Source of the DNA: a virus
Lineage: Duplodnaviria; Caudoviricetes
DNA length: 64,000 nt
Reading direction: 5' to 3' (one strand)
IMG/VR virus record: IMGVR_UViG_3300029288_000148
Coordinates: 11,773-75,772 of that record
How positions within the stretch are numbered: position 1 is the first letter of the stretch; each line of letters begins with the position of its first letter. The notes beneath the pieces were generated by a model. The model saw nothing but the letters and a program-made list of their open reading frames with translations. It did not search any database and was not told the DNA's origin. The position numbers were made by a program, and so were the translations under genes. Positions 1 to 28,918 of the stretch are shown here, in pieces.

Positions 1-3000
1 GCTCTGCTGCAGACAGGATATTATAAGTATTCTCAATCATACTGGAAAAAATATCCCGGACCTGTCTTTCTGATCCAAGTCTTTTCCACATTCCCTTTTC
101 GGACGTTGCTAAAACATCCTTGCCCGTGCCAGCCATTCCCTTACTCTTTTCAAACTCCTCAAATACTCTTCTTAATGGTACATAATACTGGTGCTCCTTC
201 TTAATCTTCTCAATAACCTCTCTCGATATTTTCCCCGATTCAGCATAGAAATCGAGCAATGCTTCATTATACTTCTGAACCTTTGATTGAAAGTCCCAAA
301 GCTCCCTCACCCCATATTGCTTTTCGTACAGGTCAATCTTTGCCTTGGCATCAGCTATTGGCATAACTGCCTGTTCTGGCTTCCTGTTCTGGTAAGATTC
401 CAAACTATCTTTTGCAAGCAAATAATCCGAATAATCCCCGTATTTTTTTGAACCTTGAAATAATTTATGGGTTTTTAACACAGACATAAGACCTTCAATG
501 TCTGTTCTTATCTCAATGTCTTTCCCTCGCTTAAAATAAGGGTGGTATAACAACCATTGCTGCGCCCTGCCATCAATACCCATCATGGCCTTTGCGGAAG
601 CATACGGGTCCTTAAACATCACTGCATTGCTGCCAACAACCTTCTTCCATTCTTCTGAAAGGTTTTTCATGTACTGCAAGTGGTTCACATAAGAATATAA
701 GAACTTGTCCGGATCCCACGATTTTATTAATCCTTCAAACCAAGGATCTTTTTTCTCGTTTTCAATATAACGTCTTGCTCTCGGATCAAGGTCAGCGTAA
801 TCCTTAAACTCCTTCCTTGCTGTTTCCAGTGCCTCTTTTATCGGTGGTGCCGCATCAAGCATTTTTTCAAACCAAGCATGGAATTTCGGAAGCTCTGTCT
901 CAACTTTTTTGGAATCTGCAATATAATTCCAGGTAAATTCCGCAATGGCTTCTGTCTTGCTTCTTGCACTCACCGGATAATTAATGTCCATGAGAAAGTC
1001 TGCAAGCTCTTTTTTGAAATAGTCACGCTGTAATACTCCTGCTACAATATTATCTCCATATTTTGCCCGTAACTGAGCTAATCGCTTTTCTCTGGCTGCA
1101 AGTTGTGGCTGAAGCTTTGTCTTTAACTCGTTAGCCTTAATTACAGATATTCTTGGAAGATTAGTTTTTTTATCAATCTCCTTGGCATCACGGTCAATCT
1201 TATCAAAGTCACGGTAAATTCTTCCCTTGTACTTCACGCCAACAGACCTAATTTCTGCAGCTACATCAGCATATTTCTCCGGAAGGTTCTTTGCGCCAAC
1301 AACATTTCTGAAATCAAATATCTGGAAATCGAGCCAATGTCCCAGTTCGTGCGAAAGTACCCGGAAGTCTTTTAATCCTTTTATTCTGACAATACCGCTA
1401 TCAGGGAAGAATACCCCTGCAGCATTTTTCAAAAACCTCTTTATCATACCTGACCTTACACCTCCTCCGGGTTTCCTCTTGAGGTTATTAATAAGATTCC
1501 TGCTTATCTGCGAAAGTGTCATAGAATTATTCAGGTCGCTGCCTCCGTAGGCTGGATCCTCCTTTGTACTTAATGGCAACTGATCGCCAAATCCAATAGC
1601 CTCGGCATCCTGTTTTGTTTCCGTCTTTATGGTGTTGCCGGCCCTGTCGTTCTTATCCCTCCACCTGCGATTCTTCGATGCTCTTGTTCCAAGTGCTTCT
1701 TTGCGCTGTGGTAATCCTTCTGGCTTTGATGGCGGTACATCCGGCTTCTCTTTCCAATATCCTTTTTCAATGTTTTCCAGAATATCCTTTGTGCTCATAA
1801 AGAATGGTTTCTCTATAAGCTGATTCTTGGTGTCAAACATTGATACATCGGCACCAATATTATTAGCCTTCCACTCAAGATCGACAAAAAACTCTCCGTC
1901 CTTATCCTCGAATAACTTGCCCTTAATATCAGAAATCTCGGTTAATGGCAGCAAATCATAGTGTCCTCTTTCCTGTGCTGTCAATTTTCTGCCATAGGTA
2001 AGCGTTTCAAATCTCTCCCCTGGTTCCAGTTCTGCCCTTACAAATCCCTCTTTAGGATATGTGCCAATATCAAAAGGTCTTGATGTCAATCGATATTTAT
2101 ACTCTTTGGCTCCTTCTGGCGCTTTCTCGGCCCTTACTTCTTTTATTTCTGGTTTCTGTTCAGTAAGCCATTTGTTTACTTCCTTCATTATGGCATGTAT
2201 CCCCGATTCTGCAACTGGGACTTTTTCCCCCTTGAGAAATGACATTAATCCCTGCCTGTATTTTTTATTACTATCGCCTGAAAGACCATAAATAGCATCA
2301 CTAATCATCTTATTCCTATCCCAATCACTTACAGCAATTTTTGTCTTTTCTTTTATAGAATTAAGATAATCCTCATATTTTACATATCCAGGTATTTCTT
2401 CTGGTACAAACTTTTCTTTTGGTGCTTCTACTCCTCCCTCGGTAAACTTTTTCAGGTTAGCGTTAATATCCCTCTGCAGCTTGCCCAACTTAACTCCGGT
2501 ATATTCTTCAAAGAAATTCTTCCAGTTCTTATTGTTGTAAAAATTTCTGTCCTGAAGTGCCTTTAAATTCTTTGCATCAATCTCCTTTTTAAGTGCAGTA
2601 AAATGCTTTGTATTTACCTCTATACTCTTTGCCTTTGCCTTTTCTATATCCTCGGCAGAGTATTTTATGCCACGCTTCTGCCCGTCCTCTATCGCTCTCT
2701 CAAGTGCCTTCTGTGACATTTCATTGACATACTTCGTGACAATATCCGGTTCGGTAGGTCTTACTTCTGGCATCTCCGGCTTCCGCTCTTCCGGCAATAC
2801 TTCTTCTGCCTTAAACTCATAACGGGATAATGCCTCATTCTCTCTGCCAATAGGTATTCCTTCTGCATCCGCTAATAACTGGCGTCTTGCTGATTCTCTT
2901 GCCTTTGCTTCTGTCAGATCAGGACTGCTTGTAAGGTATGCCCTTCTCCATTTTTCCTCACCTTTCTTCCGATAAAAAGTTTTAAATACCTTATCTCCTC

Positions 3001-6000
3001 TATCAAGTGCTCTGTTTATTAAGTCAACATCTTGATTTGAATCATAATCTGCCACCTCCGGTGATCTTAGTTCTGGCAGTTCTTTTTCTACTTTTGGTGT
3101 AACAGATTTTGCTTTCTCAATATCGCTCCTGTATTTCTCAATTAAATCATAAGCCTCTCTTGGTTTGTTTAACAACTCTGATACCTTATAACCTAATTCC
3201 CCGCCTCCCTGGAGCCAAGATATATATTTACCCGAATCCAGACTATCAGTATATTTTTCAACACCCATAACATCAGCAACCATATCAAGTAATTTCTGTG
3301 TAACGGGTGTTCTTGTATTAGGCTGATATTCCGGAAAGCTCTCCCGATCACTAACTATTTCCGGTTTCTCTGGTGCTGCTGCAAATAGATCCCCTTGCGT
3401 TAACACTTCCTCTATCTTGCCTTTTCTTTCACTATTTAAGTCATCAATCTCTCTTTGCAACTGCGCGGCTCTCTCCTCAAAAGGTTTCCGGATTCTTTCT
3501 ACTGCACCCTCAAGATCAAATCCCTGCTCCTCTCTTTTAATAATCTCATCCGGATCAACGGGCTTATTGTCCCCAAATAGACCTACTCTTTCTTTATTTG
3601 CCTTATCAATGGCGTCTTGAATCTTTTTAGGGATCAATTTAAGTTCCTCTTGCTTATCAGCAATCTTTTTATCGTACTCCTTATTGATCTTATCAATTTG
3701 CGCCTGTTGTTCAGGTGTTGCTTTGATCTCAGACTTTACAGGCTTTTCTTCTGGGACAGATTTGCCCTGATCTTTGCCAGCTTCATCGCCAGCTTTATCA
3801 AGTTCGGAGACGGCTTCTCTTTCTTCGTCTGCCCGTTCTGATTCGATTCGTTCGCGTTCTGCGTCTTCATCTTTAAGTATTTTTTTAACTCGTTCAACAT
3901 CATTCTTATCAATAATTCCGTATTCGACTGCTTTGTCAATATTGTCCAAGGTCAAATCTCCATAGTCCTTCGCAAATGCAACAACCTTCTCATTTGCGAT
4001 TTCTTCCATTACATCCTTAATTTTAATAGGTCTGCCTATTTCTTTACCTGGCTTGAGATTGAGTACTCCTCTTTTAAACATATTTTCCAAACCATCAATA
4101 ACAGCTTGTGTATCAACATTTGCATTGCCCTTTAAAATATCATCTATTGCCTTGTCTCTTGTTTTAACATCTCCCGGCAAGTCGAGATCATATAAATATA
4201 CTCTTGCCTCTAACATCATATCAAGGAAAGTCTTAAACTCCCCCTCCGGAATATCTGCAAGCTTTTTATTGTCGCCCCTGACTGCCGTTTTTCTGACCTT
4301 ACTGCCGTTTTTCTTGACAACAAGTTTTTTGCCTTCCATGCCAATTGAATACTTGTCCTTTTCGGATTCGCCCATCAATCGCCGAATGTGACTTCTTATC
4401 TCCCCCTGCCTTGATTTGGTTGTGCCCTTGGCATTATATTCACTCACTAACCCCGCAATCCGATCATTTATGCGAATAGCCTTTTCTTCTGGTGTTTCGA
4501 CCTTCTTTGGCTCAATGGGTTTTTCTGGCTCTGACGGCTTCTCCTCTTTGATCTCAGGTGTTTCAGCCTTAACTTCTGGTTTCTCGACAACCCCTTCTTT
4601 CCCGGGATCCACAACAATCACGTCCGGGATCTCCTCTTTTATAACATCCTCCGGTTTAATATCTCCTTTAGGAATAAAACTGTAATATTTCGCCACAAGT
4701 TTATTCTCCTCCGGTGTTCTTTCATTAACATTTTTCTCAAGTGCAGATACCAGTAAGGCATCATCAAATCCCTCCTCTTTTAATTTCTCAATGATCTTTG
4801 TCTTTTCTTCAATCGGTAATGAAGCAGCCTTCTCCTGAATCTTCATGTCATTCAATTGCGCCTGATTACGGATAGCAAAAGATTCTGCCTCCTCCGGTGT
4901 GCCAAACTTTTTCCTTTCCACTAACACACCTTCTTTGTTGACCATATCTACATATACCCCGTTTTGCGTAATCTTATCTCCATAAAGATTAATATCTTCC
5001 ATTGCGGTTCCCCTCGATGCCCAAAGAAGCTTCTGTTTTAATCTCGCAGGGATATTTTCATTTTGCAGGATCATACCCAAATACGCATCATCATGTGCGA
5101 GTTTCCTTACAAGTGTTTTGTAGTCCTTTCCCCCAACCGATTCTATCTCATACGGCACAAGATCAACAGCAAATATCCCTTCCCCTGCCTTGTTTGGATT
5201 GTATGCTACTGATTTATAAAAGTTCATCGCCGCTTTTTTCGGATCTTCTATTGCTGATGGTATCCTCCCAACTTTATGTGAAAGCTTTAGCATAGCAAGC
5301 ATAGCAGCCGTACTAATAAAATCATCTTTCGTTGCCGGCCTGCCTTCAAGTAATGCTCCTCCTCCTGCGAATAATGCGCTCTCTGCAGTCAGCCCTCCTA
5401 TTCCTATTGCTCCCTTTGCACCCAATCGTCCAATAGCATTAGGGATCATTGATGCCTTTTGCGCAAGCATTGATGCCCCAATTCCAAAACCTCCTACGCC
5501 AAGACCAAGAACAGAACTCTCCATGCCATGTTTAAACACCTGTGACAATCTTATATCATCAAATGATGCATCAGGCACCGCCCATTGCCCAAGGGCATCT
5601 GTTATGGCAGAATACGATCCAAGGGCAGCCGATGAACTACCCATGCCCTGTAATGCTATTGTAGTTCTTTCTGCAGCTTTCAATGCAAACTCCCCAGCAA
5701 GCCTCTCCGGAATACCTACCTTAATCATTTTCTTAGTAGAATTTTCCATTATTTTCTTCACAAATGGAGCTGCGGCTTTCTTTGTAATAGTCGTTCCAAG
5801 TTTCCCCCCAAGACCAAATGCCGGCATGTCTAAAAGAAATCCCAATACCATTGCCGTTACATCGGTCATAGTGTCGCTGTCATACTTACTCAGCCATTCC
5901 TCCGGTGCTCTTGATTCGCCATTAATAATGTTATCTGCCAACCCAGTTATGGTTTGATTATACGCCCTGCCAAGGATATATGTAAGCTTTGACGGAGTTT

Positions 6001-6754
6001 TTAGAAGCATATTAAGGCGATCCTTCTCCTTTAAAAGTGCAGCTCTCTCCTCAGAAACAATCGGTTTTGAAATAAATGGTCCTGCCGTCGGAAGTATTGT
6101 GCCTACCGATTGTTGCTCTGCCGGCAATGCAGCAAGTTTCTTGTCTATTTCAGCTAATTCGGCTTCCGTCTTTGTTTTGAAATAGTCTTCGCCAAGTGTT
6201 TCACTGATTACTTTTTGTCCAATACGCTGTTCCTTAAACCCTGCTTTCGGTTCTTCAATCTTTAGCTCTGGCTTTTTTAAATGATCGAATCGCTGTTCCG
6301 TAAGATAGTTTCCTATGGAGAATTGCAGGGTGCTTTTAAAAATATCCTTCCCTGTATATCTGTCTTTCTCTTTTTGTGTTGTTAATAAATCTGAATCTTC
6401 TTCTACGTCTTCTGGTTTGGAGACGGTCTCGGGAAATCCTTCCTCTACTTCCGGCTCTGTTGCTTTACCCTTACGAACCTGGGCAAACATATCTTCAAAT
6501 ACTTTTGCGCTTGGCAAACCATAGTCGCCAGCTTCTTTTTTTTTTAACCCAAAGGTGTATAAGAACTCATTATAGTCAGAAGGTATCGCATAATTATCTT
6601 CCAGTAATTGCTTATGTAGCAAAGAAGCATTTGAAGTGTCTTTAAAAGTCTTTTCAAAAATAGCATAGTCTTCCGGTACCGCATACTGATCTTTCAATAA
6701 CTGCTGGTGTAGTAAGTCTAAGTCCGGGTGTTTTTTTACTTCTTGATCTGCCAT
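1..6754 (-). CDS. Giant (>2251 aa, 3'-truncated by window) ejected cargo / large polyvalent protein with zincin-like HExxH, DarA_C-like and LPD38-like segments
   Basis: Absent from the ORF track. I translated an open frame from ATG at 6754 (MADQEVKKHPDL...) to base 1 with no stop. It has a duplicated N-terminal motif (LLHQQLLKDQY/LLHKQLLEDNY), a G/A-rich hydrophobic stretch, YRLTSRPFDIGTYP...TYGRKLT (~1960-2100), VLSHELGHWLD (~1330-1362) and YYVPLRRVFEE...GSERQVRDIF...IENTY near the window start. It occupies the last cargo position after the muzzle gene. Confidence 0.85.
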   Translation of the reverse strand, partial: MADQEVKKHPDLDLLHQQLLKDQYAVPEDYAIFEKTFKDTSNASLLHKQLLEDNYAIPSDYNEFLYTFGLKKKEAGDYGLPSAKVFEDMFAQVRKGKATEPEVEEGFPETVSKPEDVEEDSDLLTTQKEKDRYTGKDIFKSTLQFSIGNYLTEQRFDHLKKPELKIEEPKAGFKEQRIGQKVISETLGEDYFKTKTEAELAEIDKKLAALPAEQQSVGTILPTAGPFISKPIVSEERAALLKEKDRLNMLLKTPSKLTYILGRAYNQTITGLADNIINGESRAPEEWLSKYDSDTMTDVTAMVLGFLLDMPAFGLGGKLGTTITKKAAAPFVKKIMENSTKKMIKVGIPERLAGEFALKAAERTTIALQGMGSSSAALGSYSAITDALGQWAVPDASFDDIRLSQVFKHGMESSVLGLGVGGFGIGASMLAQKASMIPNAIGRLGAKGAIGIGGLTAESALFAGGGALLEGRPATKDDFISTAAMLAMLKLSHKVGRIPSAIEDPKKAAMNFYKSVAYNPNKAGEGIFAVDLVPYEIESVGGKDYKTLVRKLAHDDAYLGMILQNENIPARLKQKLLWASRGTAMEDINLYGDKITQNGVYVDMVNKEGVLVERKKFGTPEEAESFAIRNQAQLNDMKIQEKAASLPIEEKTKIIEKLKEEGFDDALLVSALEKNVNERTPEENKLVAKYYSFIPKGDIKPEDVIKEEIPDVIVVDPGKEGVVEKPEVKAETPEIKEEKPSEPEKPIEPKKVETPEEKAIRINDRIAGLVSEYNAKGTTKSRQGEIRSHIRRLMGESEKDKYSIGMEGKKLVVKKNGSKVRKTAVRGDNKKLADIPEGEFKTFLDMMLEARVYLYDLDLPGDVKTRDKAIDDILKGNANVDTQAVIDGLENMFKRGVLNLKPGKEIGRPIKIKDVMEEIANEKVVAFAKDYGDLTLDNIDKAVEYGIIDKNDVERVKKILKDEDAERERIESERADEEREAVSELDKAGDEAGKDQGKSVPEEKPVKSEIKATPEQQAQIDKINKEYDKKIADKQEELKLIPKKIQDAIDKANKERVGLFGDNKPVDPDEIIKREEQGFDLEGAVERIRKPFEERAAQLQREIDDLNSERKGKIEEVLTQGDLFAAAPEKPEIVSDRESFPEYQPNTRTPVTQKLLDMVADVMGVEKYTDSLDSGKYISWLQGGGELGYKVSELLNKPREAYDLIEKYRSDIEKAKSVTPKVEKELPELRSPEVADYDSNQDVDLINRALDRGDKVFKTFYRKKGEEKWRRAYLTSSPDLTEAKARESARRQLLADAEGIPIGRENEALSRYEFKAEEVLPEERKPEMPEVRPTEPDIVTKYVNEMSQKALERAIEDGQKRGIKYSAEDIEKAKAKSIEVNTKHFTALKKEIDAKNLKALQDRNFYNNKNWKNFFEEYTGVKLGKLQRDINANLKKFTEGGVEAPKEKFVPEEIPGYVKYEDYLNSIKEKTKIAVSDWDRNKMISDAIYGLSGDSNKKYRQGLMSFLKGEKVPVAESGIHAIMKEVNKWLTEQKPEIKEVRAEKAPEGAKEYKYRLTSRPFDIGTYPKEGFVRAELEPGERFETLTYGRKLTAQERGHYDLLPLTEISDIKGKLFEDKDGEFFVDLEWKANNIGADVSMFDTKNQLIEKPFFMSTKDILENIEKGYWKEKPDVPPSKPEGLPQRKEALGTRASKNRRWRDKNDRAGNTIKTETKQDAEAIGFGDQLPLSTKEDPAYGGSDLNNSMTLSQISRNLINNLKRKPGGGVRSGMIKRFLKNAAGVFFPDSGIVRIKGLKDFRVLSHELGHWLDFQIFDFRNVVGAKNLPEKYADVAAEIRSVGVKYKGRIYRDFDKIDRDAKEIDKKTNLPRISVIKANELKTKLQPQLAAREKRLAQLRAKYGDNIVAGVLQRDYFKKELADFLMDINYPVSARSKTEAIAEFTWNYIADSKKVETELPKFHAWFEKMLDAAPPIKEALETARKEFKDYADLDPRARRYIENEKKDPWFEGLIKSWDPDKFLYSYVNHLQYMKNLSEEWKKVVGSNAVMFKDPYASAKAMMGIDGRAQQWLLYHPYFKRGKDIEIRTDIEGLMSVLKTHKLFQGSKKYGDYSDYLLAKDSLESYQNRKPEQAVMPIADAKAKIDLYEKQYGVRELWDFQSKVQKYNEALLDFYAESGKISREVIEKIKKEHQYYVPLRRVFEEFEKSKGMAGTGKDVLATSEKGMWKRLGSERQVRDIFSSMIENTYNILSAAE

Positions 6755-8967: not shown

Positions 8968-11751
8968 TTAATAACTTCGTTCACTGTTTGTTGAAAAAAC
9001 TATTGCAGAATAAATTCTGACTTTTTCCTCATGCTCAGTTGTCTGCAGTCTGACTAAGCAATATCTTCCTCTCATCTCCCTGCCATTCATAGTCCTTGCA
9101 TTCTCTGTTGCAAAAGTACCAGGAGTATTCTGATCTTTTAATATCTGACCATAATAAACTCCCTCTCTATTTTCCCAGACGGCAATGTATGTTTCCATCA
9201 GCGCATAACCAGCCTCTTTGGGAATGGTAACATATCTTGACAAGGAATCCATTTGATGATCACAATAAAGAGCAAGAGCATTAAACACCTTTACTTTCCC
9301 GGGATTTATGTTAGAAGGAAATTGTACTTCTGCAAAAACATTCTCTCCGGCCCACTTCAAATATCCCTGACCTTCATCAACATTCATTATATAAAGACGC
9401 TGATTGTAAATGTGTGCAAAGAAATTACCAAGATGAACATATCCGTCTGTTGGCTGGTTTAACCTCGAAATCCACTGGCCACGGTTCTCACTAAATATAG
9501 CACCGGTTATTTCTTCTTTTACCCGGAAAGTAACCCAAATCTCATTATGTTCTACGTTTGCCCCGGACCGGACCTCAAGATTACCGCTACCTCCGTTTAA
9601 CTGAATCCATCTTAACAGATCCTTAAACCACCGCTTCATCTTTATATCAGAAATCTCAATCTGCCCGTTTGCCGCAGACCGGATATACTTCCCTTCGGTG
9701 TTATCCCAATAATATAGGTATCGATCATTGTTGAGAATACTATCCGGGTGTTGACAGCCATAATCATTCTCCATAGGTCTTTGCGTGCCAAGAAGATTAT
9801 CTATAAGGGTGAATTGTTCTGTGCCATCAGGATTAAATGTTTGTATTCTTTGAATATAAACACTCGTTTCCTTGTGCATCTGCACCACTTTCAAAGTAAA
9901 TCCTATCTCCCTCAGTCCGGTTATTGCTCCATTCTTTTTCGGAAAGTCGATATAATCCTCAAAAGTGAAATGTGCCAGGTTGTTTATCTGTGTACCGGTA
10001 ATAAGAAATCCTCCGTGCCTTAATCTCTCCGGCAAAACATTTTGTCTTAACGGGATCTTGGAATATAAGAATGGCCATCCCTGAGAAGTAAGCTTTGTCT
10101 GGTTTTCCCACCAATCGCTCGGCGCATTGCTTTCTGCCCAAAACTGATATATCTGATCCGATTCATCACGGTAGTTTAGCCGAATATATTTCCATGCATC
10201 ATTGGCAGTATTATAAACTTGCGCATAAGTCTCCGTTATCTTATTTTCATTTATGTACTGATCAATGTCTCCCTTGTGATATTTGTGTCCAAATTCATTT
10301 GTGGCAATATCATAAACCATCCCTGTCCCGTAGTAAGTAGTAATGCCCAATCCCTTCCTTGGTCTATAAATCTCGACAAGAATATTATCCATTCCCTCAA
10401 AGTCTGTCGGATGATCAATAGCCTGTATTAAAAGCCAATCAACTCCTATTGCCTCTCCATACTGTGTGCCGGTCTGTTCTATCTCATAGTCATAAACGTC
10501 TGTATATTCTGTAACAACTCCTGTTCCATCGTCAATGCATGCAATTAATCTCATTCGGTCTCCCTCTTCCCAAATATAATCCGGCACTTTCCATCTTCTG
10601 TTTTGGTTCCTTGTATGATCAATAGTGTCTTGTATCATTACAGAATATCGATCATTGCCAATATCATAAATGGCATTTGCCCTCATCTGAACAAAGAAGT
10701 CCATTGATACATTGCCGGCATATACTATCTCATAAGTATCTGCCCAAGACGGGGGATTGTGACCTATCTTAAAGGTAAGAAGCGCAATTGATGAAAGTAA
10801 TATCCCAGGATCTTCTTCTGCATACCACGGCAAATAAACCTCCATGGCTGAACACCTGATCACTGAACACTGCCTCCCGCAATTATCTTTGTAAACAATA
10901 CCAAAGCTATGTGTTGCTCCATTTTTCAGCACAGGATATTTGGCAGTCAGGCCAAGGTCAAGGATATATGCTGTGACTGTCCATCCTTCAAAGACTGTGT
11001 TTATGTCGCCTGGCTCAATATACGGTGACTGAACAAATCTTCCTGATCTATACAATACCGCAATTTTATAATCTGATGGATGCCCAACAAAAGGTATCTC
11101 ATTCGCCGTCATAGATGCCTGTAGTCCATTCTTTACGTCAAGATAAGTATTGCCTGCCACTGCAAGATAGGACGCTATCTTATCAAACCCAGGACCTTGT
11201 ACGCGGACATAATAAAAGCACCCCTCTCTTATAGTTAAAGGAATAGAAATAAAAAACGATCCTTCAATATTTCGATAAATAGTACTCGATCCATCCTCTC
11301 CTCTTTCATAATCCCAATATCCTCCCCCATAAGGTGTCCCTGGCTCTTTTGTATTATTATCTGCATTTGCCCTCCAAATAATCTGCACTCCAAATGTATC
11401 TGGATGAGAAACCAAATCTCCCTTTTTATAATTATAGCTCGGCAACCAGTTCTGTACTGTTATAGTAGTATAAGTTATCGGTGACTGAGTAAGTTTTGTT
11501 CTTAAATCATACTGTGATGCTTCTGGAGCTTTATTTTCATAATCTATTTCTGTTTCAACAATTGGTTCTACTCCGTCATAACCTTCAGTAATACTTCCCA
11601 GAACAATAGCATTTCCACAAATTAACTCCATGTGCCCGGCCTTAATAGGAACATAAGTAAATGGTTCTGCAACCTCCCCTGCAGAAATAACCTCTTTTAC
11701 CCTGTCGTTGTAAAAGTTATACCTAATATCCGTGTTATGACCGTAAATCAT
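8968..11751 (-). CDS. Tail stabilisation (muzzle) protein, C-terminal part, 927 aa
   Basis: Crass-type muzzle motifs FYND...VPIKA...GNAIVLGSITEGYD, LKNGATHSFGIVYKDNCGRQ, DYGCQHPDSI and C-terminal KVKVFNALAL...NREGVYYG...MRGRYCLV. Confidence 0.75.
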   Translation of the reverse strand: MIYGHNTDIRYNFYNDRVKEVISAGEVAEPFTYVPIKAGHMELICGNAIVLGSITEGYDGVEPIVETEIDYENKAPEASQYDLRTKLTQSPITYTTITVQNWLPSYNYKKGDLVSHPDTFGVQIIWRANADNNTKEPGTPYGGGYWDYERGEDGSSTIYRNIEGSFFISIPLTIREGCFYYVRVQGPGFDKIASYLAVAGNTYLDVKNGLQASMTANEIPFVGHPSDYKIAVLYRSGRFVQSPYIEPGDINTVFEGWTVTAYILDLGLTAKYPVLKNGATHSFGIVYKDNCGRQCSVIRCSAMEVYLPWYAEEDPGILLSSIALLTFKIGHNPPSWADTYEIVYAGNVSMDFFVQMRANAIYDIGNDRYSVMIQDTIDHTRNQNRRWKVPDYIWEEGDRMRLIACIDDGTGVVTEYTDVYDYEIEQTGTQYGEAIGVDWLLIQAIDHPTDFEGMDNILVEIYRPRKGLGITTYYGTGMVYDIATNEFGHKYHKGDIDQYINENKITETYAQVYNTANDAWKYIRLNYRDESDQIYQFWAESNAPSDWWENQTKLTSQGWPFLYSKIPLRQNVLPERLRHGGFLITGTQINNLAHFTFEDYIDFPKKNGAITGLREIGFTLKVVQMHKETSVYIQRIQTFNPDGTEQFTLIDNLLGTQRPMENDYGCQHPDSILNNDRYLYYWDNTEGKYIRSAANGQIEISDIKMKRWFKDLLRWIQLNGGSGNLEVRSGANVEHNEIWVTFRVKEEITGAIFSENRGQWISRLNQPTDGYVHLGNFFAHIYNQRLYIMNVDEGQGYLKWAGENVFAEVQFPSNINPGKVKVFNALALYCDHQMDSLSRYVTIPKEAGYALMETYIAVWENREGVYYGQILKDQNTPGTFATENARTMNGREMRGRYCLVRLQTTEHEEKVRIYSAIVFSTNSERSY

Positions 11752-11760
11752 TTCTTTTTG

Positions 11761-12180
11761 TTAAGTGATGTAAATAACCCCACGGGCATTCCATGTTATT
11801 GTGGATGTGCCATTGGTAACAATCTGGTTTATCAGCATATTTATAATACACAGGATTCTTGATGTCGCTGGATTGCCAGAATTTACATAAATGGCAATAT
11901 ATTGATAGTCCAAGTATGCCCCTGGCCCAATTACCGGATTGCTGGTAAAATCCAAATAGGCATTATTCCCCTCATAACCAGCCGTATTTCCCGTCAATTT
12001 AAACCCCCCGGCCGTATATACTCCTCCGGTGTCCGTAACTTCATTTGCAGATACCTGTGAGATGTACTGCTGATTTGCTGCGTCCTGAACATGCGTGTCT
12101 TTTAGCAACATCGCATAAATATTCTCTCCTGCCCAGTCTGTTGCAATTTTGTTTTTTTCGAATTTTGGAATTATACTCAT
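11761..12180 (-). CDS. Conserved phage virion-associated beta-sandwich protein, 139 aa
   Basis: YTAGG..L...IAIY...ITW...G pattern seen in small phage tail-associated proteins; sits between two muzzle fragments. Confidence 0.5.
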   Translation of the reverse strand: MSIIPKFEKNKIATDWAGENIYAMLLKDTHVQDAANQQYISQVSANEVTDTGGVYTAGGFKLTGNTAGYEGNNAYLDFTSNPVIGPGAYLDYQYIAIYVNSGNPATSRILCIINMLINQIVTNGTSTITWNARGVIYIT

Positions 12181-12192
12181 GATTTTAAAATT

Positions 12193-13974
12193 TTAAAATT
12201 CTTCACTTCTCAAATATACTGCAATAGTTTCTCCGGCGTTAGGGACAGAGATTAAATTAATAATTACCATATTTTCTTGTAAATTATTTGCGGAGAACGA
12301 TCCGGCACTTCCCTTCCAAACGCCATTAACTAATTCTCTCCAATAAATTGTAAATACTTCGCCCGCCGCCTTCCCTGGATATGTCGGAGTAAAGGTTAGT
12401 GCTATTTCAAGGTAGCCCACATAGGCTGATGCGCTTTTTGTCAAATAATCTATTGTTAGTCCATTCGGATCTGAAAATCCCACCAATAACGAACAATATA
12501 TCGGGACTGATGGTATTACAGGATGTTCATCTTGCAATACATCTAACGAGAAAATGCTTCCTGCGATATTTTGCATAATGACACTCCCTGTTAGTGGATT
12601 GTAAGTATCATTATTAACAATTGGATACATCCTTATCGTTTCCCCATTTGCAATATTATCCAATGCAACTAAGTTATTCCCAAGAGAATCTATTACTTGC
12701 ATCCATGAGGGGAACGAAGATAATATTGCATCTCCTGGCCCTACGGATATTGTTACTGCCTTTGCTGCTGATATTCCTATCTCTGCGAAACTCTCATTAT
12801 AAACCCATTCAAGAGAACTTTCAGATAGATTAACATATACATTTGTTATGGTTGGCACTCTTATGCTTAATGCCATAGTCCCATATAATGGAGCGACTAC
12901 GGCTGAGTTTGTTATTATCGGAAGCTTTATTGTCAATGCCATTGTTGAATAGCTTGGCATTGTCAACTTACTACCCTCTGCAAGTATTGTCTGAGATACT
13001 TCTTCAATCCCAAACTTATCAATCTCCTCGACTAAAAACCACGTTGAAGGATCTTGGCTACTTCTTCCAATAATCCTTATCTTCCTTACCTCCTCACCTC
13101 CGGTGTTGACGACTATCTCAAGTGCATTGTTCTGTGAAATAATCTCGGTGGCTTGCCCTGTTGCTACTTCCTCTTCTGCTTGCGGTAATGCAACAATGCT
13201 GGCTGGGGAATAAGTACTTTGTCTGAAATCAAGGTAAACATAGTTGTATGCAAACTGAAATAATGTTTGCCGAAGTCCGTTTATCTTTCTCGAATCATCA
13301 GTCTTATAAGTAACAACAGGCGGCTTGTCCGGAGGAATAGGTGCAAAATAAAAGTTCTTAACATTCATGGAATAATATGCCTCGTCAATAAGGCAAAGCT
13401 GTTCCCAGTATGTTGTTTCGCTTCGCGGATCAAAATTCGTTCCCGGGACAATACATTTATAAAAATGCTTTCCTTTTGAAACGATCTGTCCTGCCTGATA
13501 AAAAACTGTTTCATCCCATGCAGTAGTTGTTGGGTATGGATCGTAGCCAATACCATAGAAGAATGACTTTTTCGCCCTTTCAATATCTATTTGATAAACC
13601 GGATTTAAATTATCGGTAAATATCAATTTGCCATGGACAACCCTTGCATTACGAATCCTGTTCAACTTATTCAACCCAAGTGCATTGTTATCATTGAAAT
13701 AAACAACGGCAATAACTCTTGTGTCGATCTCTATCTCAAATATCCAATCACGGTTATAATAAGTATCAAGATAAATGAGATACAGTTTCCGGTGTTCTTT
13801 GTCAATAGCTTTTCCCAAAAGGAATGTCGTGTACTTTGAATGAGTTCCCGGATTGATCGTTCCAGTATCTTTTATCAGCCTGACAGAAAGATAATAAGTT
13901 TTGAGTGTAACGGCTTTTATCGCTTCTGCACTATCATAAGACAAATAGAAATATTTTCCAAGAAGATCACTCAT
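12193..13974 (-). CDS. Tail stabilisation (muzzle) protein, middle part, with N-terminal FISUMP remnant and C-terminal extension, 593 aa
   Basis: LLGKAID...LIFTDNLNPVYQIDIERAK and LFQFAYNYVYLDFRQSTYSP are Crass-type muzzle motifs; the first 36 aa end in LSVRLIKD, the FISUMP terminal motif. Confidence 0.7.
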   Translation of the reverse strand: MSDLLGKYFYLSYDSAEAIKAVTLKTYYLSVRLIKDTGTINPGTHSKYTTFLLGKAIDKEHRKLYLIYLDTYYNRDWIFEIEIDTRVIAVVYFNDNNALGLNKLNRIRNARVVHGKLIFTDNLNPVYQIDIERAKKSFFYGIGYDPYPTTTAWDETVFYQAGQIVSKGKHFYKCIVPGTNFDPRSETTYWEQLCLIDEAYYSMNVKNFYFAPIPPDKPPVVTYKTDDSRKINGLRQTLFQFAYNYVYLDFRQSTYSPASIVALPQAEEEVATGQATEIISQNNALEIVVNTGGEEVRKIRIIGRSSQDPSTWFLVEEIDKFGIEEVSQTILAEGSKLTMPSYSTMALTIKLPIITNSAVVAPLYGTMALSIRVPTITNVYVNLSESSLEWVYNESFAEIGISAAKAVTISVGPGDAILSSFPSWMQVIDSLGNNLVALDNIANGETIRMYPIVNNDTYNPLTGSVIMQNIAGSIFSLDVLQDEHPVIPSVPIYCSLLVGFSDPNGLTIDYLTKSASAYVGYLEIALTFTPTYPGKAAGEVFTIYWRELVNGVWKGSAGSFSANNLQENMVIINLISVPNAGETIAVYLRSEEF

Positions 13975-13975
13975 C

Positions 13976-16447
13976 CTATAAAGTAATTACTTCAATTATG
14001 TAATTCATCAAAACATCGTCCGTTGATGAGCTATCAACACTCACGGACATTATTATATTCCCCGAACTAAGAGAACTTGTTATTGTAATACCAACATTGT
14101 CGCCATAATATTCCACCGATTGATCTGTTAATGGGTTTTTGTTAATGATAAACACTGTCCCCATCTGGTCATTTGATCCTCGTCTTGCAGCATAGTCTAT
14201 TATAACTGCGCTATCTGTTGATAAATTTCCTACGACAATATTGGTTACAGCTCCATAAGGAAGTATCCCTTCAGGAATGACAGGTTCAGGTTCTTCTTCA
14301 GGAAGAACATTCGTTATACAATTAATACTATTCTGCTCAAATTGAGGATTCCCTCCAATTTCATCCCATGATACTCCATTGTCAACCGATCTCCAAATAT
14401 CTCCGGTGTCATCACCTATTAAGATAACTCCATCAGCAATATGCGTAGCGCATAGTATCGATGTGGCAATTCCCAAAACATTTATTTCTGTTGTAAAATC
14501 ATCATCAGTATAACTTATGCTTTCAGTGTTACAGCTAAATAGTATCCTTGATCCATTTGCGCCAATTATGAAATTTACCTTATTACTACCAAAGCTTCCC
14601 ATGTCTGCCCAACTCTCTCCTCCGTCAGCCGATCTCCATATATGACCATCAGTATCTCCCGCATATATATTTGATGAACTATCTGTATAGGCTGCAGAAA
14701 AACCACCTGCCTGTTTTAAGGAATAAGTTGCGCTATCAATAGTCCAATTATAAATACCTGTACTGGTAATAAGTATTACATTCGTTTCGTCAATGAAAGA
14801 AGATCCATAAAGTACTCCCAGATTTAATCCGGAAGACTTAAATGTTGCTCCACCATCTATACTGTAATTAAGGTTCCCAAGGGCATCAGAAACTACAACT
14901 ACCTCCTGAAATGCTCCGATGTGGTAAATATGATCCGATCCGGCACTCCCAGCATAAGTATAATATCCTGTTGAATAGTTAATAACTCTGCCTTGGTCGG
15001 TGCTATAAATTATATCACCATTTCCAAGTCTTGCAAAACTTGTCGGATTGCCCAGATTAAAACTGCCTTCATTTACAAATGTTATTCCAACGTCAACGGA
15101 TCTGAGAATTAATCCACCTATCGATGTCCCTGCCAAGATGAAACTTTCGGAATCGATACTCAGCGATTTAACAAGTCGAACATTGGCTACTACAAGATTT
15201 TTATCTAAATGTTCTGTTGTCCAAAAAACTCCACTATTAGAAACAAGGTAAGGCATATAAATCTCTGTTTCATCAAACATTTCGCTTGTTGCAAAAAATG
15301 CAAATTCTTTTATACTGGAAAAAGAGGCATCAATCTTATTTCTATATCCTCCCCCAAGCGCAGTAAATCCTGATTCGTTTGTTGCTCCGGTATTAGGGGC
15401 GTTCCAATGAACTAATCCAGTTTCCTTCATCTTCCCGCCTGCGTTATATGCTCCACCAATCGCACTCGCTAATTTTGCCCAATCCTGTAATGTAGGAACT
15501 CTCCACCCTTCTTCATGAACACCATTACGAAGCATATAGGCTATTCCCTTGGCATTTGTATAGGCATAGGCGCTATAGATAATGCCATAATCGCGATATG
15601 TAACCGGATCGTTATCATACCAACAATATCCTCCATTATGCCCTGCACTGCCATCTTCTGCAAGCCAATCCGCATCTAAGGTAAGGTTTGGTATTGCTGT
15701 CCCGTCAGCGTATTTTGTGACTATTAGGTTTTCGATAAGCCAAACTTGGTTGCCAACAACAACTTCTGTGTAAATATTCCCATCCAGATCAGTAAGCACA
15801 CCAATGTCAGCGTCTTTCAGCCAAAACGTAGCTTTCTCTTTTAAAAGCTTAAATATCGTATCAAACATTCCACAGGGAAGTGCGGTAAAATTACTTGAGT
15901 TATCTGCTAAAAGGTTTGGCGATGCCCAATGAGTAAGTCCGGCCTCCTTCATCTTTGCCCCAGCCACTAATGCACCGCCAAGATATGACATCAATTCGTC
16001 AAAATCTGATTCAAAAGGCACCCTCCACCCTGCAGGCGCAAAATCCCCTTGTTGTATCATATCCCAATTATAAAGCCCCCCACAGGACACCCTGTTTTCT
16101 TCATCATCATTAAATACTTTGCTCCCGGGATAATCAAAATCCCAATTCTTTCCCATCCATACCTGATCTCCAATTGCGACTTCCGGATAACCCTCGTAAA
16201 TGAATTGTGATCCAATGGCCCCGCCATAATAACCAGGAATAGAGGCGTCAATCAATAGCTCCACCTCTGCAAGTAAGGTTTCCATTAATCCAAACCCTTG
16301 CTGTTCGTCACTGGAAGCCACCCTTACGTTCAGGGCATCGAGATATTCTCCGTTTAAGAAATTCTCAACATCCTCTGGAGAATGATCTTTATTCATCCCC
16401 AGCGAAAAACGCCGCTCATCGTGATTTTGTCCCTGATTCTGCCTCAT
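13976..16447 (-). CDS. Muzzle N-terminal fragment fused to two FISUMP (Fibrobacter succinogenes major paralogous) domains, a BNR-type beta-propeller and a C-terminal domain, 823 aa
   Basis: Begins GMNKD...GEYLDALNVRV (Crass muzzle N-terminus). IGDQVWMGKN...GGLYNW...PAGWRVP and TDLDGNIYTEVVVGNQVWLIENL...YCWYDND...GWRVPT are FISUMP motifs; repeated SxDGG/SVDNG BNR motifs follow. Confidence 0.75.
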   Translation of the reverse strand: MRQNQGQNHDERRFSLGMNKDHSPEDVENFLNGEYLDALNVRVASSDEQQGFGLMETLLAEVELLIDASIPGYYGGAIGSQFIYEGYPEVAIGDQVWMGKNWDFDYPGSKVFNDDEENRVSCGGLYNWDMIQQGDFAPAGWRVPFESDFDELMSYLGGALVAGAKMKEAGLTHWASPNLLADNSSNFTALPCGMFDTIFKLLKEKATFWLKDADIGVLTDLDGNIYTEVVVGNQVWLIENLIVTKYADGTAIPNLTLDADWLAEDGSAGHNGGYCWYDNDPVTYRDYGIIYSAYAYTNAKGIAYMLRNGVHEEGWRVPTLQDWAKLASAIGGAYNAGGKMKETGLVHWNAPNTGATNESGFTALGGGYRNKIDASFSSIKEFAFFATSEMFDETEIYMPYLVSNSGVFWTTEHLDKNLVVANVRLVKSLSIDSESFILAGTSIGGLILRSVDVGITFVNEGSFNLGNPTSFARLGNGDIIYSTDQGRVINYSTGYYTYAGSAGSDHIYHIGAFQEVVVVSDALGNLNYSIDGGATFKSSGLNLGVLYGSSFIDETNVILITSTGIYNWTIDSATYSLKQAGGFSAAYTDSSSNIYAGDTDGHIWRSADGGESWADMGSFGSNKVNFIIGANGSRILFSCNTESISYTDDDFTTEINVLGIATSILCATHIADGVILIGDDTGDIWRSVDNGVSWDEIGGNPQFEQNSINCITNVLPEEEPEPVIPEGILPYGAVTNIVVGNLSTDSAVIIDYAARRGSNDQMGTVFIINKNPLTDQSVEYYGDNVGITITSSLSSGNIIMSVSVDSSSTDDVLMNYIIEVITL

Positions 16448-17214
16448 CTCTTAGGTGTCTGTCTATAAGTCTTGTACAGCATCCGTTTGTACTCGTCTTT
16501 TGTAAATGCTGACTGAAAATATCTTAATGCCTCGATTTCTTCTTCATGTCCTCTTTTTCTTCTTTCTTTTTCGGTATAAGGTGTTCTTGAATCAAATTCA
16601 ACCATTTGCCACAAAATGTATGTTCTTATGGCCGGCACACATTCTCTGGGAATAGCTGAAGATCCTGTTGCTTTTACTCCGGAAGAAATATATTCCAGAA
16701 CAATTTGGGATCTTGGCACCGATCCGGTAAACACAATTGTCCCCATCTCCCTGTCAAAACGGTAATAAGCATCATCAATGCCTCCGGGCATGCCATATAA
16801 CCCCCCGACAAACTGCCCTCCTCGAAAATGATCTGAAAAATATACCAATGATGCTGCATCAACCGTGTCATCTGCATCTGTATTCCCTACAGGCGTTCCG
16901 TCCGGAAATGTCCTTGGTAAAAGTATTTGTTGGTGGTTTGTTAATACCCTTAGTTTGCCATTTATCGGAACACCTATCTTCAGCCAATCCACAAAGTCTG
17001 CCGGAAGCGTAACTACTTTTGCTGAGTTCATTTCAAGATATACAACTTCGTAATTGTCGATATGGAAAAGATTTAACTCTGTATATCCGCTTATTGCAAG
17101 TTGCATAAGTCTGTAATAATGCCTCATGGAATAGTCTCCAAGCAGGTTTAAGACACTCATGACAATATATCTTAGTGTAACTACTCCCGGGGTTTTTGGT
17201 GAATCAAAGCTCAT
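16444..17214 (-). CDS. Tail ring / head-tail connector protein, 256 aa
   Basis: LPADFVDWLKIG and IVLEYISSG motifs typical of Crass-type ring proteins; directly upstream of the muzzle gene. Confidence 0.6.
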   Translation of the reverse strand: MSFDSPKTPGVVTLRYIVMSVLNLLGDYSMRHYYRLMQLAISGYTELNLFHIDNYEVVYLEMNSAKVVTLPADFVDWLKIGVPINGKLRVLTNHQQILLPRTFPDGTPVGNTDADDTVDAASLVYFSDHFRGGQFVGGLYGMPGGIDDAYYRFDREMGTIVFTGSVPRSQIVLEYISSGVKATGSSAIPRECVPAIRTYILWQMVEFDSRTPYTEKERRKRGHEEEIEALRYFQSAFTKDEYKRMLYKTYRQTPKR

Positions 17215-17225
17215 TTATTTCATTA

Positions 17226-17915
17226 TTAAAATTGGTTTGGCCTGTTGGCTACCTGGTCCGGAGCTAAATCCTGTGGTGGTTTATTTCTCAAAAACTCCAC
17301 AGTTTGCTTTACAAGAATATCTTCCTGTCCTGCGGGCATAGCAATATCATCATAATCACCTATCTGATCAAGGGGCACGATCATTTTTACATTAAGAGTA
17401 AATGGGTCAAACATCGAATATAGATTGTATGTCGATAGCGGGATTTTTGCAAGCCTTAAAATATGCGATGCCCCCGCAAGCAGTGTGTTATTCATCTCAA
17501 GCCGAAAAGTAGGAGTTGCATCAATTGACGATACTTCAAGTTCGTTAAAGATTGCAACAGCAGTATTGTCAAGATATGCAAAAACTATATTATCGTCTCC
17601 TTTCACCGCAACTTCTCTTATCCCCATATTGTCCGGAAGCTGCATTGGGGGATATGGTAATCTTATATGACCGCTTACAAGGCTTCCGGCAGTAACGGCA
17701 TCATATAATTCAAGCTCATACGTATATGTCCACGCATCAAGCTGGCTGTAATCGGTAAACTTCTTACAGTTTAACCATACTTGGTACACAACCTGGTTAA
17801 ACGCATTTTCCAGATATTTCTTTATGATAGCAGGATGATATTGTCCAATCATATCATCCGGATGCCCACTGGCAAGGAAATCTCCCACCAAATCGACCAG
17901 GTTTTCTTTTTTCAT
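17226..17915 (-). CDS. Tail ring protein, 229 aa
   Basis: Size, LPYPPMQLP motif and position in the ring-gene cluster. Confidence 0.5.
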   Translation of the reverse strand: MKKENLVDLVGDFLASGHPDDMIGQYHPAIIKKYLENAFNQVVYQVWLNCKKFTDYSQLDAWTYTYELELYDAVTAGSLVSGHIRLPYPPMQLPDNMGIREVAVKGDDNIVFAYLDNTAVAIFNELEVSSIDATPTFRLEMNNTLLAGASHILRLAKIPLSTYNLYSMFDPFTLNVKMIVPLDQIGDYDDIAMPAGQEDILVKQTVEFLRNKPPQDLAPDQVANRPNQF

Positions 17916-18077
17916 TTACCGTCTCTTTTTTGAAGATGATTTCTTTCCCTGCGTCCAACCGCCGCCGGCCTTCCGCTTAATTCCGATGCTGTCACTGCAT
18001 ATACCGTAAGCCGAAGATTTACTCTTACCTGATGACATTACTTTCTTAATACAGCGTTCAAGTTTTTTGGGTGCCAT
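17916..18077 (-). CDS. Small basic protein, 53 aa (MAPKKLERCIKKVMSSGKSKSSAYGIC...)
   Basis: Below the ORF-track cutoff. ATG at 18077, TAA at 17916-17918 abutting the next start; K/R/S-rich. Confidence 0.65.
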   Translation of the reverse strand: MAPKKLERCIKKVMSSGKSKSSAYGICSDSIGIKRKAGGGWTQGKKSSSKKRR

Positions 18078-26787: not shown

Positions 26788-28607
26788 TCAGTAAATGGAT
26801 GGGTTGTTGTTGAATTATATAACAAGGTTACATCGGCTGGTGTAAATGCCTGATGCCATATAGCGCATTCATCCATATAACCACGAAAGTTTAATGCACC
26901 ATTTGTAGTATAATTACCGAAATATATATTAGAATTAGATGAGTGTAATGTTCCGCTAAATGTATAATTAGCATCATAAGCTGTCGTTACGTCAACATTA
27001 TTAACATATATTAAATTAGTTTTTCCATCTCCCCTATGAACGAAAACTACATGATATACAGTACTATCTGAAATTGCTGCAGTAGATATAGAGCTATATT
27101 CTGTTCCAGTAGAATTATATGTCCTAAACATTATTTTACCATCTGTATCTATATAAGCTCTATGAGTAAGTACTGGTGTTGCAGTATTTGTTATTGCAAA
27201 AATATAATCTGCTGTTGAAGCACCTATTGAATCAGCCCATATCCATGCAGATACTGTAAATAATGCATCAGGATTAACATTAACATTATAAGGCACTCTA
27301 ATCTGACTTTTATATCCAATATGCCTATTGTAATTATACTTTGCGTGTGCCGTAGTTGCTGTTGTGGCAGCACCTAAAACAGCTTCCTGAATATCATTTG
27401 CATCCGCTCCCGCTGTACCGCTTGTCTCATCAAGTTTATAATAAACAGCTAAACTATCAAGTAATGGTGATTCCTGACCCTCTAATGACAAATAATTCCA
27501 TGAAATAGGTTCTCTTATTCGTATTTCAACCCATTCATCATCTGTCCAATCAGGTCTCACAAATATTGTATCTTCATTTATACGATAACTACTATCTCTT
27601 GTATTTATAGCACCCGTATGAAACCAATGTAAATCACCTCGTCTATATACATCAAGCTGTTTACCTATAAATGCTGAATGAATAATAGTACTATCCCCCG
27701 AAGATGGAGCACCTGTGGTTGTCCCTATAATAAACTTTAATATATCACCCGTAAAAGAGCCACCACCACCTGATCCTATATATCCCTGGACATAAGAGGG
27801 TGTAGCAACATAATCATTATCACTTGCACCATCTGTTGTATCTGCTAATGCAATACCTATTACTGCATTATCTAACCTTTCCTGTATAGTATCATTAACT
27901 AATTCTGCTGTTTGTAAGCGTGGCATATAATTACCCTCAGATACTCCGGTACTATCTGCTGTTCCTACCGTTGCCGTTGCTGTCCGGAAGTCTGCCGCAC
28001 TTAATGCATTAACTCCATTTGTAGCTGTTATTTGCGGAAAGGTTATTGCTGAGGGATTAGGCAGCATAAAGAATGCTGATCCAACTGTTGTTGCTCCAAG
28101 GGATGTTCGTCCGTCTGCAGCGATAAGATCAGTATTACCACCATCCCATTTAAGCCTATCCGTGTAGGCTGTGTTCCAGTTTGCAACTGGCATCGCAACA
28201 CCACTAATTGTAGGTACGGTTGATATTTCTATGCTGGTAAACCACCCCTTTAAAATCCTATCTGCTATTGTCCCTATTGATGAGGCACCTAAATTACTAT
28301 AATAATTTACCGCCGTTAATCCTGTCACATAAATAGACGATACTCGATCTATTGAATTACCTATTCCCCCTGTTATTAATAAATTATTACTACCCAAATC
28401 AAAATTTCCTCCGGAAAGCGTCAATTTGTTTATTGACTGAGTAAGAGACAAATCGTTATTGAAATTGATATTGGCTCCCGATCCCTGTAGATAAAATGTC
28501 GGTGTTGTCTTTTTTAGGGTTAAATTAGATTCCATAAGCCTGGTTGATTGACAATAAGCCATGATCCCTACAAAAAACAATATGAATAGGAAAATCAGTT
28601 TTTTCAT
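26784..28607 (-). CDS. Tail-fibre-like protein with C-terminal LamG domain and Sec signal peptide, 607 aa
   Basis: MKKLIFLFILFFVGIMAYC|Q; NWNTAY, GRTSLGATTVG...NPSAITF fibre motifs; AVYYKLDETSG...YHVVFV...GYMDECAIW LamG motifs. Confidence 0.75.
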   Translation of the reverse strand: MKKLIFLFILFFVGIMAYCQSTRLMESNLTLKKTTPTFYLQGSGANINFNNDLSLTQSINKLTLSGGNFDLGSNNLLITGGIGNSIDRVSSIYVTGLTAVNYYSNLGASSIGTIADRILKGWFTSIEISTVPTISGVAMPVANWNTAYTDRLKWDGGNTDLIAADGRTSLGATTVGSAFFMLPNPSAITFPQITATNGVNALSAADFRTATATVGTADSTGVSEGNYMPRLQTAELVNDTIQERLDNAVIGIALADTTDGASDNDYVATPSYVQGYIGSGGGGSFTGDILKFIIGTTTGAPSSGDSTIIHSAFIGKQLDVYRRGDLHWFHTGAINTRDSSYRINEDTIFVRPDWTDDEWVEIRIREPISWNYLSLEGQESPLLDSLAVYYKLDETSGTAGADANDIQEAVLGAATTATTAHAKYNYNRHIGYKSQIRVPYNVNVNPDALFTVSAWIWADSIGASTADYIFAITNTATPVLTHRAYIDTDGKIMFRTYNSTGTEYSSISTAAISDSTVYHVVFVHRGDGKTNLIYVNNVDVTTAYDANYTFSGTLHSSNSNIYFGNYTTNGALNFRGYMDECAIWHQAFTPADVTLLYNSTTTHPFTE

Positions 28608-28918
28608 AACGTAATGATTGATAAGTTGTAATTGAAAGTAATATCATCTACGGATGCGTTATCAACTGTACAGTTTAACCTGAACACACCTGCATTATTG
28701 TCTGCGGCTATCGAAAGCCCCACATCATCGCCAAATGAATCAGGGTTATAATCCGGAGCGTCAAGCGCTCCTTTATTTAGGATGCTAAAACGCCCTGCCC
28801 TCCTTAAAGCACCTCGTATCGCCGACCATGCAACTATTATCCCATGATCCGTATTTGATGCACCAACATTTATGTTTGTTACAGCGTTGTGAGTGAGCGT
28901 ATCATGTAATGTTGCCAT
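28604..28918 (-). CDS. Small virion-type protein paralogous to the C-terminal domain of ORF 13976-16447, 104 aa
   Basis: Manual alignment: AVTNI.VG..TD...RG...G...I.NK..L...GD.VG..I...VD..S.DD...NY...ITL shared. Confidence 0.65.
   Translation of the reverse strand: MATLHDTLTHNAVTNINVGASNTDHGIIVAWSAIRGALRRAGRFSILNKGALDAPDYNPDSFGDDVGLSIAADNNAGVFRLNCTVDNASVDDITFNYNLSIITL

Follow-up and report, generated by a model that had tools for sequence, protein, structure and literature searches.

In Bacteroides phage phicrAss001, the closest described counterpart of the locus considered here, the muzzle protein gp44 is one chain in which Bayfield et al. (2023; PMC10172136) distinguish a ring-joining domain, a seven-bladed propeller, two immunoglobulin (Ig)-like domains, and the crass domain. 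Length variation of gp44 resulting from insertions was noted only in the IG2 and crass regions, and no lectin domain is described in this protein (PDB 7QOK; PMC10172136). A precedent for a nozzle encoded by more than one gene is the "split nozzle" reported for the unrelated Pseudomonas podophage A1002 (PMC13730344); the break described here falls within a domain and not between two of them. The present locus belongs to an uncultured crAss-like phage and was analyzed in a 64,000-nt stretch (positions 11,773 to 75,772 of IMG/VR record IMGVR_UViG_3300029288_000148), hereafter the window, whose numbering is used throughout. It comprises two adjacent open reading frames (ORFs), ORF A (13976..16447, 823 aa) and ORF B (12193-13974, 593 aa), and a FISUMP domain, which has a C-type-lectin-like fold, is divided between them; the minus strand carries these and all other genes in this part of the window.

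The muzzle encoded by this locus resembles gp44 in the propeller/IG fold of its body, as tested on a single-chain relative (P0048) and in a distant sequence similarity detected via phrog_14478. Its position within the virion module may correspond as well, following putative ring-protein-like genes and preceding a giant gene of putative cargo type; the upstream ORFs match phrog_13977 and phrog_14543, both annotated as "virion structural protein." Unlike gp44, the muzzle in the window has a FISUMP domain between the N-terminal segment and the propeller, an adhesin cassette nested in that domain, and a chain that is broken at this place and once more further downstream. Judging from sequences and a structural model, the FISUMP fold is quite likely completed in trans and serves as an exchange site for cassettes of receptor-binding modules. 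The split arrangement is probably a means of fixing interchangeable modules for host recognition to the tail tip.

ORF A starts with a muzzle N-terminal segment (residues 1-75; 16223..16447) that is conserved in 54 proteins, aligns to residues 11-57 of the unsplit muzzle ORFs of two outgroup contigs (L028 and L029), and corresponds by position to the ring-joining end of phicrAss001 gp44 (residues 1-67). Its ATG overlaps by 4 nt the stop codon of the upstream gene, which encodes a 256-aa virion protein. The segment is followed by the N piece of the first FISUMP domain, FISUMP-1 (residues 76-214; 15806..16222), which ends in ATFWLKDAD. The match to the NCBIfam profile TIGR02145 is partial, covering only positions 11-139 of 176 on residues 87-212, and the N piece stops approximately 30-40 profile positions early, at residue 214 (~15806); in the relatives, the corresponding N pieces cover the Pfam profile from position 1 to 153-158 of 187. 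FISUMP-1 of ORF A thus covers the first three quarters of the family (PF09603, TIGR02145), and the terminal S-V-R-x-[IV]-[KR]-D strand is found in the C piece, residues 1-36 of ORF B (13867..13974; ending in YLSVRLIKD). As a contiguous domain bearing a terminal strand of the SVRC[VM][RK]D type, FISUMP-1 does not exist in this genome, the strand being residues 29-36 of ORF B, and the domain is complete only when the products of both genes are counted.

The 609-residue cassette that follows the N piece consists of three parts. A complete second domain, FISUMP-2 (ORF A residues 216-428; 15164..15802), starts two residues past the break in FISUMP-1 and is a full family member, with the whole PF09603 profile (1-187 of 187, E 8e-44) aligned to residues 229-427 and a score of 150.6 bits for the whole of ORF A against a curated cut-off of 33.9. 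It is succeeded by a BNR/Asp-box β-propeller (residues 431-715; 14303..15157), assigned from weak BNR, Sortilin, and F510_1955 matches, four Asp-box-like motifs within residues 432-714, and the similarity of the same residues (38% identity, E 7e-48) to the propeller that P0014, a fused relative, carries as its insert. A Pro/Glu linker and a terminal domain complete the cassette (residues 716-823; 13979..14302), the terminal domain (residues 728-823) sharing 37% identity (E 7e-20) with a 104-aa ORF that stands alone at 28604-28918. The TAG stop codon (13976-13978) is separated from the ATG of ORF B by a single nucleotide (13975), the junction reading TTA TAG G ATG, and the frame of ORF B differs from that of ORF A. 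This anatomy had been laid out in the original prediction, which proved right in every detail; the interval 13867-16447 given there is exactly ORF A plus 36 codons of ORF B.

The assignment of the ORF B start as the missing end of FISUMP-1, likewise proposed from the window alone, is supported by profile comparisons. In a FISUMP hidden Markov model (HMM; 198 positions) based on four full-length copies from this group of phages, residues 8-36 of ORF B align to the final 29 positions. The N piece alone covers positions 55-160, whereas the N piece joined to residues 1-40 of ORF B extends through position 198 and gains approximately 8 bits; five shuffles of the same 40 residues shift the score by -1 to +2.5 bits. 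When the corresponding pieces of seven relatives were joined, six likewise reached the last HMM position. Across 25 aligned ORF B relatives (40-52% identity), S30 and R32 never vary, K25, L33, I34, and K35 show a conservation of 90% or more, and the terminal S-V-R-L-I-K-D strand, a hallmark of the FISUMP family, is kept across approximately 120 clusters.

The split is conserved far beyond the window, in more than a hundred related phages. Searches with ORF B residues 1-330 gathered 129 clusters among the matches listed, and 119 of the 126 cluster representatives with an informative N-terminus start at the split position, 115 of them within one residue; only four representatives are fused forms, i.e., longer proteins with an internal C piece, and P0237 constitutes a fifth. 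An exhaustive HMMER search with ORF A residues 1-215, combined with earlier matches, yielded 54 proteins with the muzzle N-terminus, all of which break FISUMP-1 at the homologous place (residues 176-219, mostly 205-219) and continue into tails of 100-900 aa. An uninterrupted FISUMP domain in an unsplit muzzle was found neither among the listed ORF B clusters nor among these 54 proteins. The gene order of a ring-like gene, ORF A, ORF B, a ~140-aa ORF, and a ~900-aa ORF holds in every IMG/VR contig examined for it and recurs on over 15 of them, P0135-P0137 (one of which occurs on 15 contigs) show the ORF A architecture in full, and an independent metagenome contig, L032, with ~90% identity, has the identical TAG + 1 nt + ATG junction. 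Close relatives of the window, at 76-93% identity, retain the whole cassette. On sequence comparison, the split is an old, clade-wide architecture, which replaces the originally proposed insertion event in this genome.

Single-chain relatives also exist. Three proteins, P0014 (1063 aa), P0048 (949 aa), and P0237 (861 aa), together with two fragments, P0020 and P0045, have all elements in one chain, in which the N-terminus and the FISUMP N piece precede a single compact insert and the FISUMP C piece and the muzzle body follow it; the nested insert is a propeller in P0014 and an Lcl_C-like domain in the other four. On a FastTree phylogeny of the conserved muzzle body, rooted with L028 and L029, fused forms branch within the split clade at three or four distinct points, corresponding to four changes by parsimony, and the basal lineages, including that of the window, are split. 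The outgroup contigs themselves, which answer the call for a comparison with relatives lacking the insert, encode a single 1249-aa muzzle ORF (phrog_14478, E 1e-32), in which residues 11-57 align with ORF A 17-66 and residues 127-165 with ORF B 104-142, the distance between the two blocks being equal to the spacing from ORF B residue 37 to 104. Their muzzle lacks exactly FISUMP-1 and the insert, and it unites in one polypeptide the N-terminal segment and the body that the window assigns to ORF A and ORF B, respectively. Because the segment extra to the outgroup is exactly FISUMP-1 plus the cassette, ORF B residues 1-36 are part of the inserted lectin domain and not of the ancestral muzzle.

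Both FISUMP pieces appear to be maintained by selection. The ratio of nonsynonymous to synonymous substitution rates (dN/dS), computed against L031 and L032 at dS values of 0.75-1.2, amounts to 0.05 in the N piece and 0.08 in the C piece, compared with 0.06 in the cassette tail and 0.03 in the body; these values indicate purifying selection on both pieces, neither of which is decaying.

Structural evidence comes from an AlphaFold model of P0048, a natural single-chain relative that is ~60% identical to ORF B residues 1-330 and through which alone the window proteins are represented; the underlying alignment spanned both halves. The mean predicted local distance difference test score (pLDDT) of the model is 76.8, with values above 90 in the insert and of 71-85 in the FISUMP N piece (residues 80-150). 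Residues 411-687 match residues 68-269 of the phicrAss001 muzzle (7qok_A) with a Z-score of 10.0 and a root-mean-square deviation of 3.8 Å over 186 aligned residues, which confirms the muzzle assignment. Seven chains of the C-type-lectin or FGE fold were matched in the PDB at Z 7.3-8.2 (8oks_B, 5aoh_B, 5hha_B, 9mzu_A, 4x8b_A, 1y4j_B, and 2y3c_A, the diversity-generating retroelement (DGR) variable protein TvpA of Treponema denticola, the latter at Z 8.1), and these matches run from P0048 residues 76-80 to residues 399-401, with FISUMP-1 starting at residue 80 and the SVRLIKE strand ending at residue 398. Both FISUMP pieces are predicted to pack together in the model, since a compact target domain could not otherwise span that range. 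The model resembles TvpA (PDB 2Y3C) and FGE-type lectin folds; unlike FISUMP and TvpA-type proteins, FISUMP-1 of the window is interrupted by the cassette, distributed over two polypeptides, and devoid of an associated DGR. A Foldseek search with the whole 949-residue model returned only low-TM multi-domain matches. Taken together, the conserved position of the split, the single-chain forms, the lectin matches spanning both pieces, the purifying selection, and the outgroup lacking FISUMP and insert favor the view that the two pieces belong to one fold.

The tails that follow the conserved N-terminal part are unrelated between lineages. Among 49 ORF A relatives, Pfam domains of the tails include fn3 (20/49), Lcl_C (12/49), and LRR (5/49), and a complete second FISUMP domain is often present. 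P0014 and P0048 share a near-identical backbone but differ in cassette, and the protein closest to both, P0056, is of the split type. Because fused forms are nested in the split clade and the cassettes of P0014 and P0048 differ, the comparison indicates that cassettes are swapped on a constant backbone and that split and fused states interconvert. These observations support the modular tail-tip diversification that had been anticipated. In this respect the locus is similar to modular phage receptor-binding proteins, such as T7-like fibers and tailspikes, in which a conserved anchor, here of 215 residues, is followed by lineage-specific unrelated tails; it differs from them in that the anchor is part of the muzzle or nozzle itself plus three quarters of a lectin domain, and in that the break is intradomain. 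Every fused form seen contains one compact insert, and multi-domain elongated cassettes were observed only in split genes. The chain break may permit long cassettes, since a nested insert must return its two ends together.

Three sequences depart from the usual pattern at this domain. ORF A of L025 (L025:4199-5998) carries, besides the usual cassette, an Lcl_C-like domain nested in another loop that comes earlier in the FISUMP-1 N piece, and therefore more than one FISUMP-1 loop takes inserts. The 172-aa protein P0283 combines a signal peptide and a pectate-lyase-like start with a stretch ~85% identical to the FISUMP-1 N piece of the window and stops exactly at the break point (FWLKNS); it could stem from recombination, or from chimeric assembly, at this hot spot. 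In L046 (L046:5983-13083), three signal-peptide-bearing, fiber-like genes follow ORF A in place of ORF B.

The following course of events would account for these data. The muzzle of the clade, its tail-tip nozzle, would have gained a FISUMP domain between the N-terminal ring-joining segment and the propeller body, and receptor-binding or adhesin cassettes would have come to land in a loop approximately 30 residues before the end of that domain. In the window and in most other lineages, the cassette ends in a stop codon and the next, tightly coupled gene starts with the last FISUMP strands, translational coupling presumably providing similar amounts of both products. By docking its first 36 residues into the incomplete FISUMP of ORF A, the ORF B product would restore one lectin fold and tie the adhesin-bearing, ring-joining piece to the muzzle body in six copies per virion, if the muzzle is hexameric as in phicrAss001. 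Finally, the conserved FISUMP halves flanking the cassette could act as homology arms, allowing cassette exchange by recombination. The receptor-binding domain completed in trans that was originally predicted holds up insofar as one fold for the two pieces is favored by the comparative data and the P0048 model, while we infer its assembly in trans, as well as the stoichiometry, receptor binding, and recombination route.

In chaperone-usher pili, an incomplete fold is completed by a strand from another subunit, which is known as donor-strand complementation. The proposed joint is analogous, as a β-rich fold without its last strands would be completed by the N-terminal extension of a partner to give a strong non-covalent connection. 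Unlike in the pili, the fold is C-type-lectin-like instead of Ig-like, no chaperone or usher is involved, and the split arose by gene fission at a domain-insertion site, with single-chain relatives persisting. We lean slightly toward the broader view that the tail tip of this environmental crAss-like clade is built on a naturally split C-type-lectin domain, which would provide both a donor-strand-type joint and a plug-in site for cassettes and perhaps whole genes, and, with the same slight preference, that the last two to three strands contributed by the muzzle body lock the adhesin-bearing, ring-joining subunit.

In the main rival to completion in trans, there is no complementation between the two products. 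ORF A would then be a self-sufficient fiber-like adhesin anchored by its N-terminal 75 residues only, with an N piece tolerating the lost strands, and residues 1-36 of ORF B would have been co-opted by the muzzle body or by another interface. A number of observations speak against completion in trans, among which the low confidence of the C piece and contig L046 also speak for this rival. Docking in trans is deduced from sequences and models, and the C piece is of low confidence in the P0048 model (pLDDT 56-74), as are residues 150-210 (below 60). For each match, VIA-align gives just the two end points of the alignment, so that contacts between the pieces are derived from ranges, and a read-through model of L010, a split relative with both genes in frame, has a pLDDT below 50 across ORF A. 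The score gain contributed by the C piece is modest and comes from a small HMM of four sequences, and the 36 residues alone are too short to reach significance against Pfam. Moreover, L046, an IMG/VR contig of 56 kb (76% complete), has no ORF B homolog; adjacency of the two genes may not be obligatory, whole genes may have lodged at the split, or the contig may be rearranged, chimeric, or incomplete. Nonetheless, we consider non-complementation unlikely, as the rival does not readily accommodate the S-V-R-L-I-K-D hallmark in ORF B of ~120 clusters with its invariant S30 and R32, the low dN/dS of the C piece, the position of ORF B residues 1-36 outside the ancestral body, the retention of both pieces in single-chain forms, or the lectin-fold matches that span both of them in P0048.

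The other alternatives to completion in trans concern the reality and the cause of the split. Synthesis of a single fusion protein via stop-codon read-through, frameshifting, ribosome hopping, or RNA splicing, either at the junction or of the whole cassette, might be suggested by L010, L012, and L017, in which ORF A and ORF B are in frame and separated only by one or two TAA codons and one or two sense codons. We find it highly unlikely: the frames differ in the window and in most relatives, and, because the spacers (-8, -4, -1, +1, +2, +3, or +9 nt) and the stop codons (TAA, TGA, or TAG) vary, there is no conserved recoding signal. Furthermore, the window contains no tRNA genes, hence no suppressor tRNA was found, and the cassette is under purifying selection as a protein. 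An Rfam search of positions 11000-18000 (E up to 1) detected no intron or other RNA family, and no repeats flanking the cassette were found. An intervening sequence of the intron or intein type was also considered and rejected, as Rfam showed no intron in that region and the cassette consists of a FISUMP domain, a propeller, and a small terminal domain ending in TAG, and not of a Hint or homing-endonuclease domain read through in frame. An origin of the split in retroelement activity, with the FISUMP domains as DGR targets, would fit the frequent use of FISUMP and C-type-lectin folds as such targets and the resemblance of the P0048 model to TvpA, but it is extremely improbable, and the association with DGRs raised in the original prediction does not apply to this phage. 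Its complete 75.8-kb genome contains no reverse transcriptase (PF00078), whereas control genomes did match, and no pair of template and variable repeats was found in 11000-18000; the genome thus does not combine the two elements that go with a DGR variable protein, namely a matching reverse transcriptase and its template repeat. An artifact, i.e., a chimeric assembly or a sequencing frameshift in one long gene, has next to no probability left. The 75,772-bp genome record is complete and bounded by direct terminal repeats, L032 independently contains the same junction, and the architecture of ORF A in P0135-P0137 and the gene order on the contigs mentioned above recur, which disposes of the objection that the contig might be chimeric.

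Downstream of the C piece, ORF B encodes the conserved muzzle body corresponding to the propeller/IG1 region (residues 37-330; 12985..13866), which was identified by the P0048 model and by a match of residues 207-320 to positions 165-278 of phrog_14478 (E 2.7e-12). The C-terminal extension (residues 331-593 and the stop codon; 12193..12984) is lineage-variable and represents the fastest-changing part of the locus among close relatives, in which it is 55-79% identical compared with 89-95% for the core. Other lineages have long FN3 arrays instead, with ORF B reaching up to ~1230 aa, and the extension looks like a second variable tip. No ORF B relative was detected by tblastn against GenBank phages, where ORF A gave only generic FISUMP matches, and PDB sequence searches with both proteins returned nothing significant.

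The muzzle is broken again in the interval 8968-12180, where ORF B is followed by a 139-aa ORF (phrog_644, a family to which no function is assigned) and a 927-aa distal ORF that matches positions 966-1269 of phrog_14478. This pair of ~140-aa and ~900-aa ORFs is present in all relatives examined; a sequence search with the distal ORF yielded only structural proteins of Flavobacterium elemo-phages at 23% identity. The clade probably infects Flavobacteriia or other Bacteroidota. The 104-aa paralog of the ORF A terminal domain (28604-28918) is located directly upstream of a fiber/tailspike cluster, and the two may represent a shared docking or oligomerization module. At the other end, positions 2-6754 are occupied by an ORF that is open-ended, exceeds 2251 aa, and includes a DarA_C domain, in the place where crAss-like phages have cargo/RNA-polymerase genes.

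Structural proteins divided by gene fission are known, as are receptor-binding proteins of modular build; what is unusual here is an intradomain break conserved across a large clade. Our literature searches retrieved no paper linking Crassvirales with FISUMP and nothing relevant on split phage receptor-binding genes. For annotation, the arrangement explains why the muzzle appears in these genomes as several ORFs, the first of which is named a FISUMP protein. The coexistence of single-chain and two-chain forms makes the clade a clean system for the study of gene fission and fusion, and the 36-residue piece with its partner is a possible natural split-domain pair for engineering phage host range. 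If the proposed reading is true, the locus would exemplify a natural structural domain in which a single loop accommodates nested inserts as well as a break of the chain, and these podophages of Bacteroidota would mount and swap their host-recognition modules on the nozzle itself and not on separate fibers.

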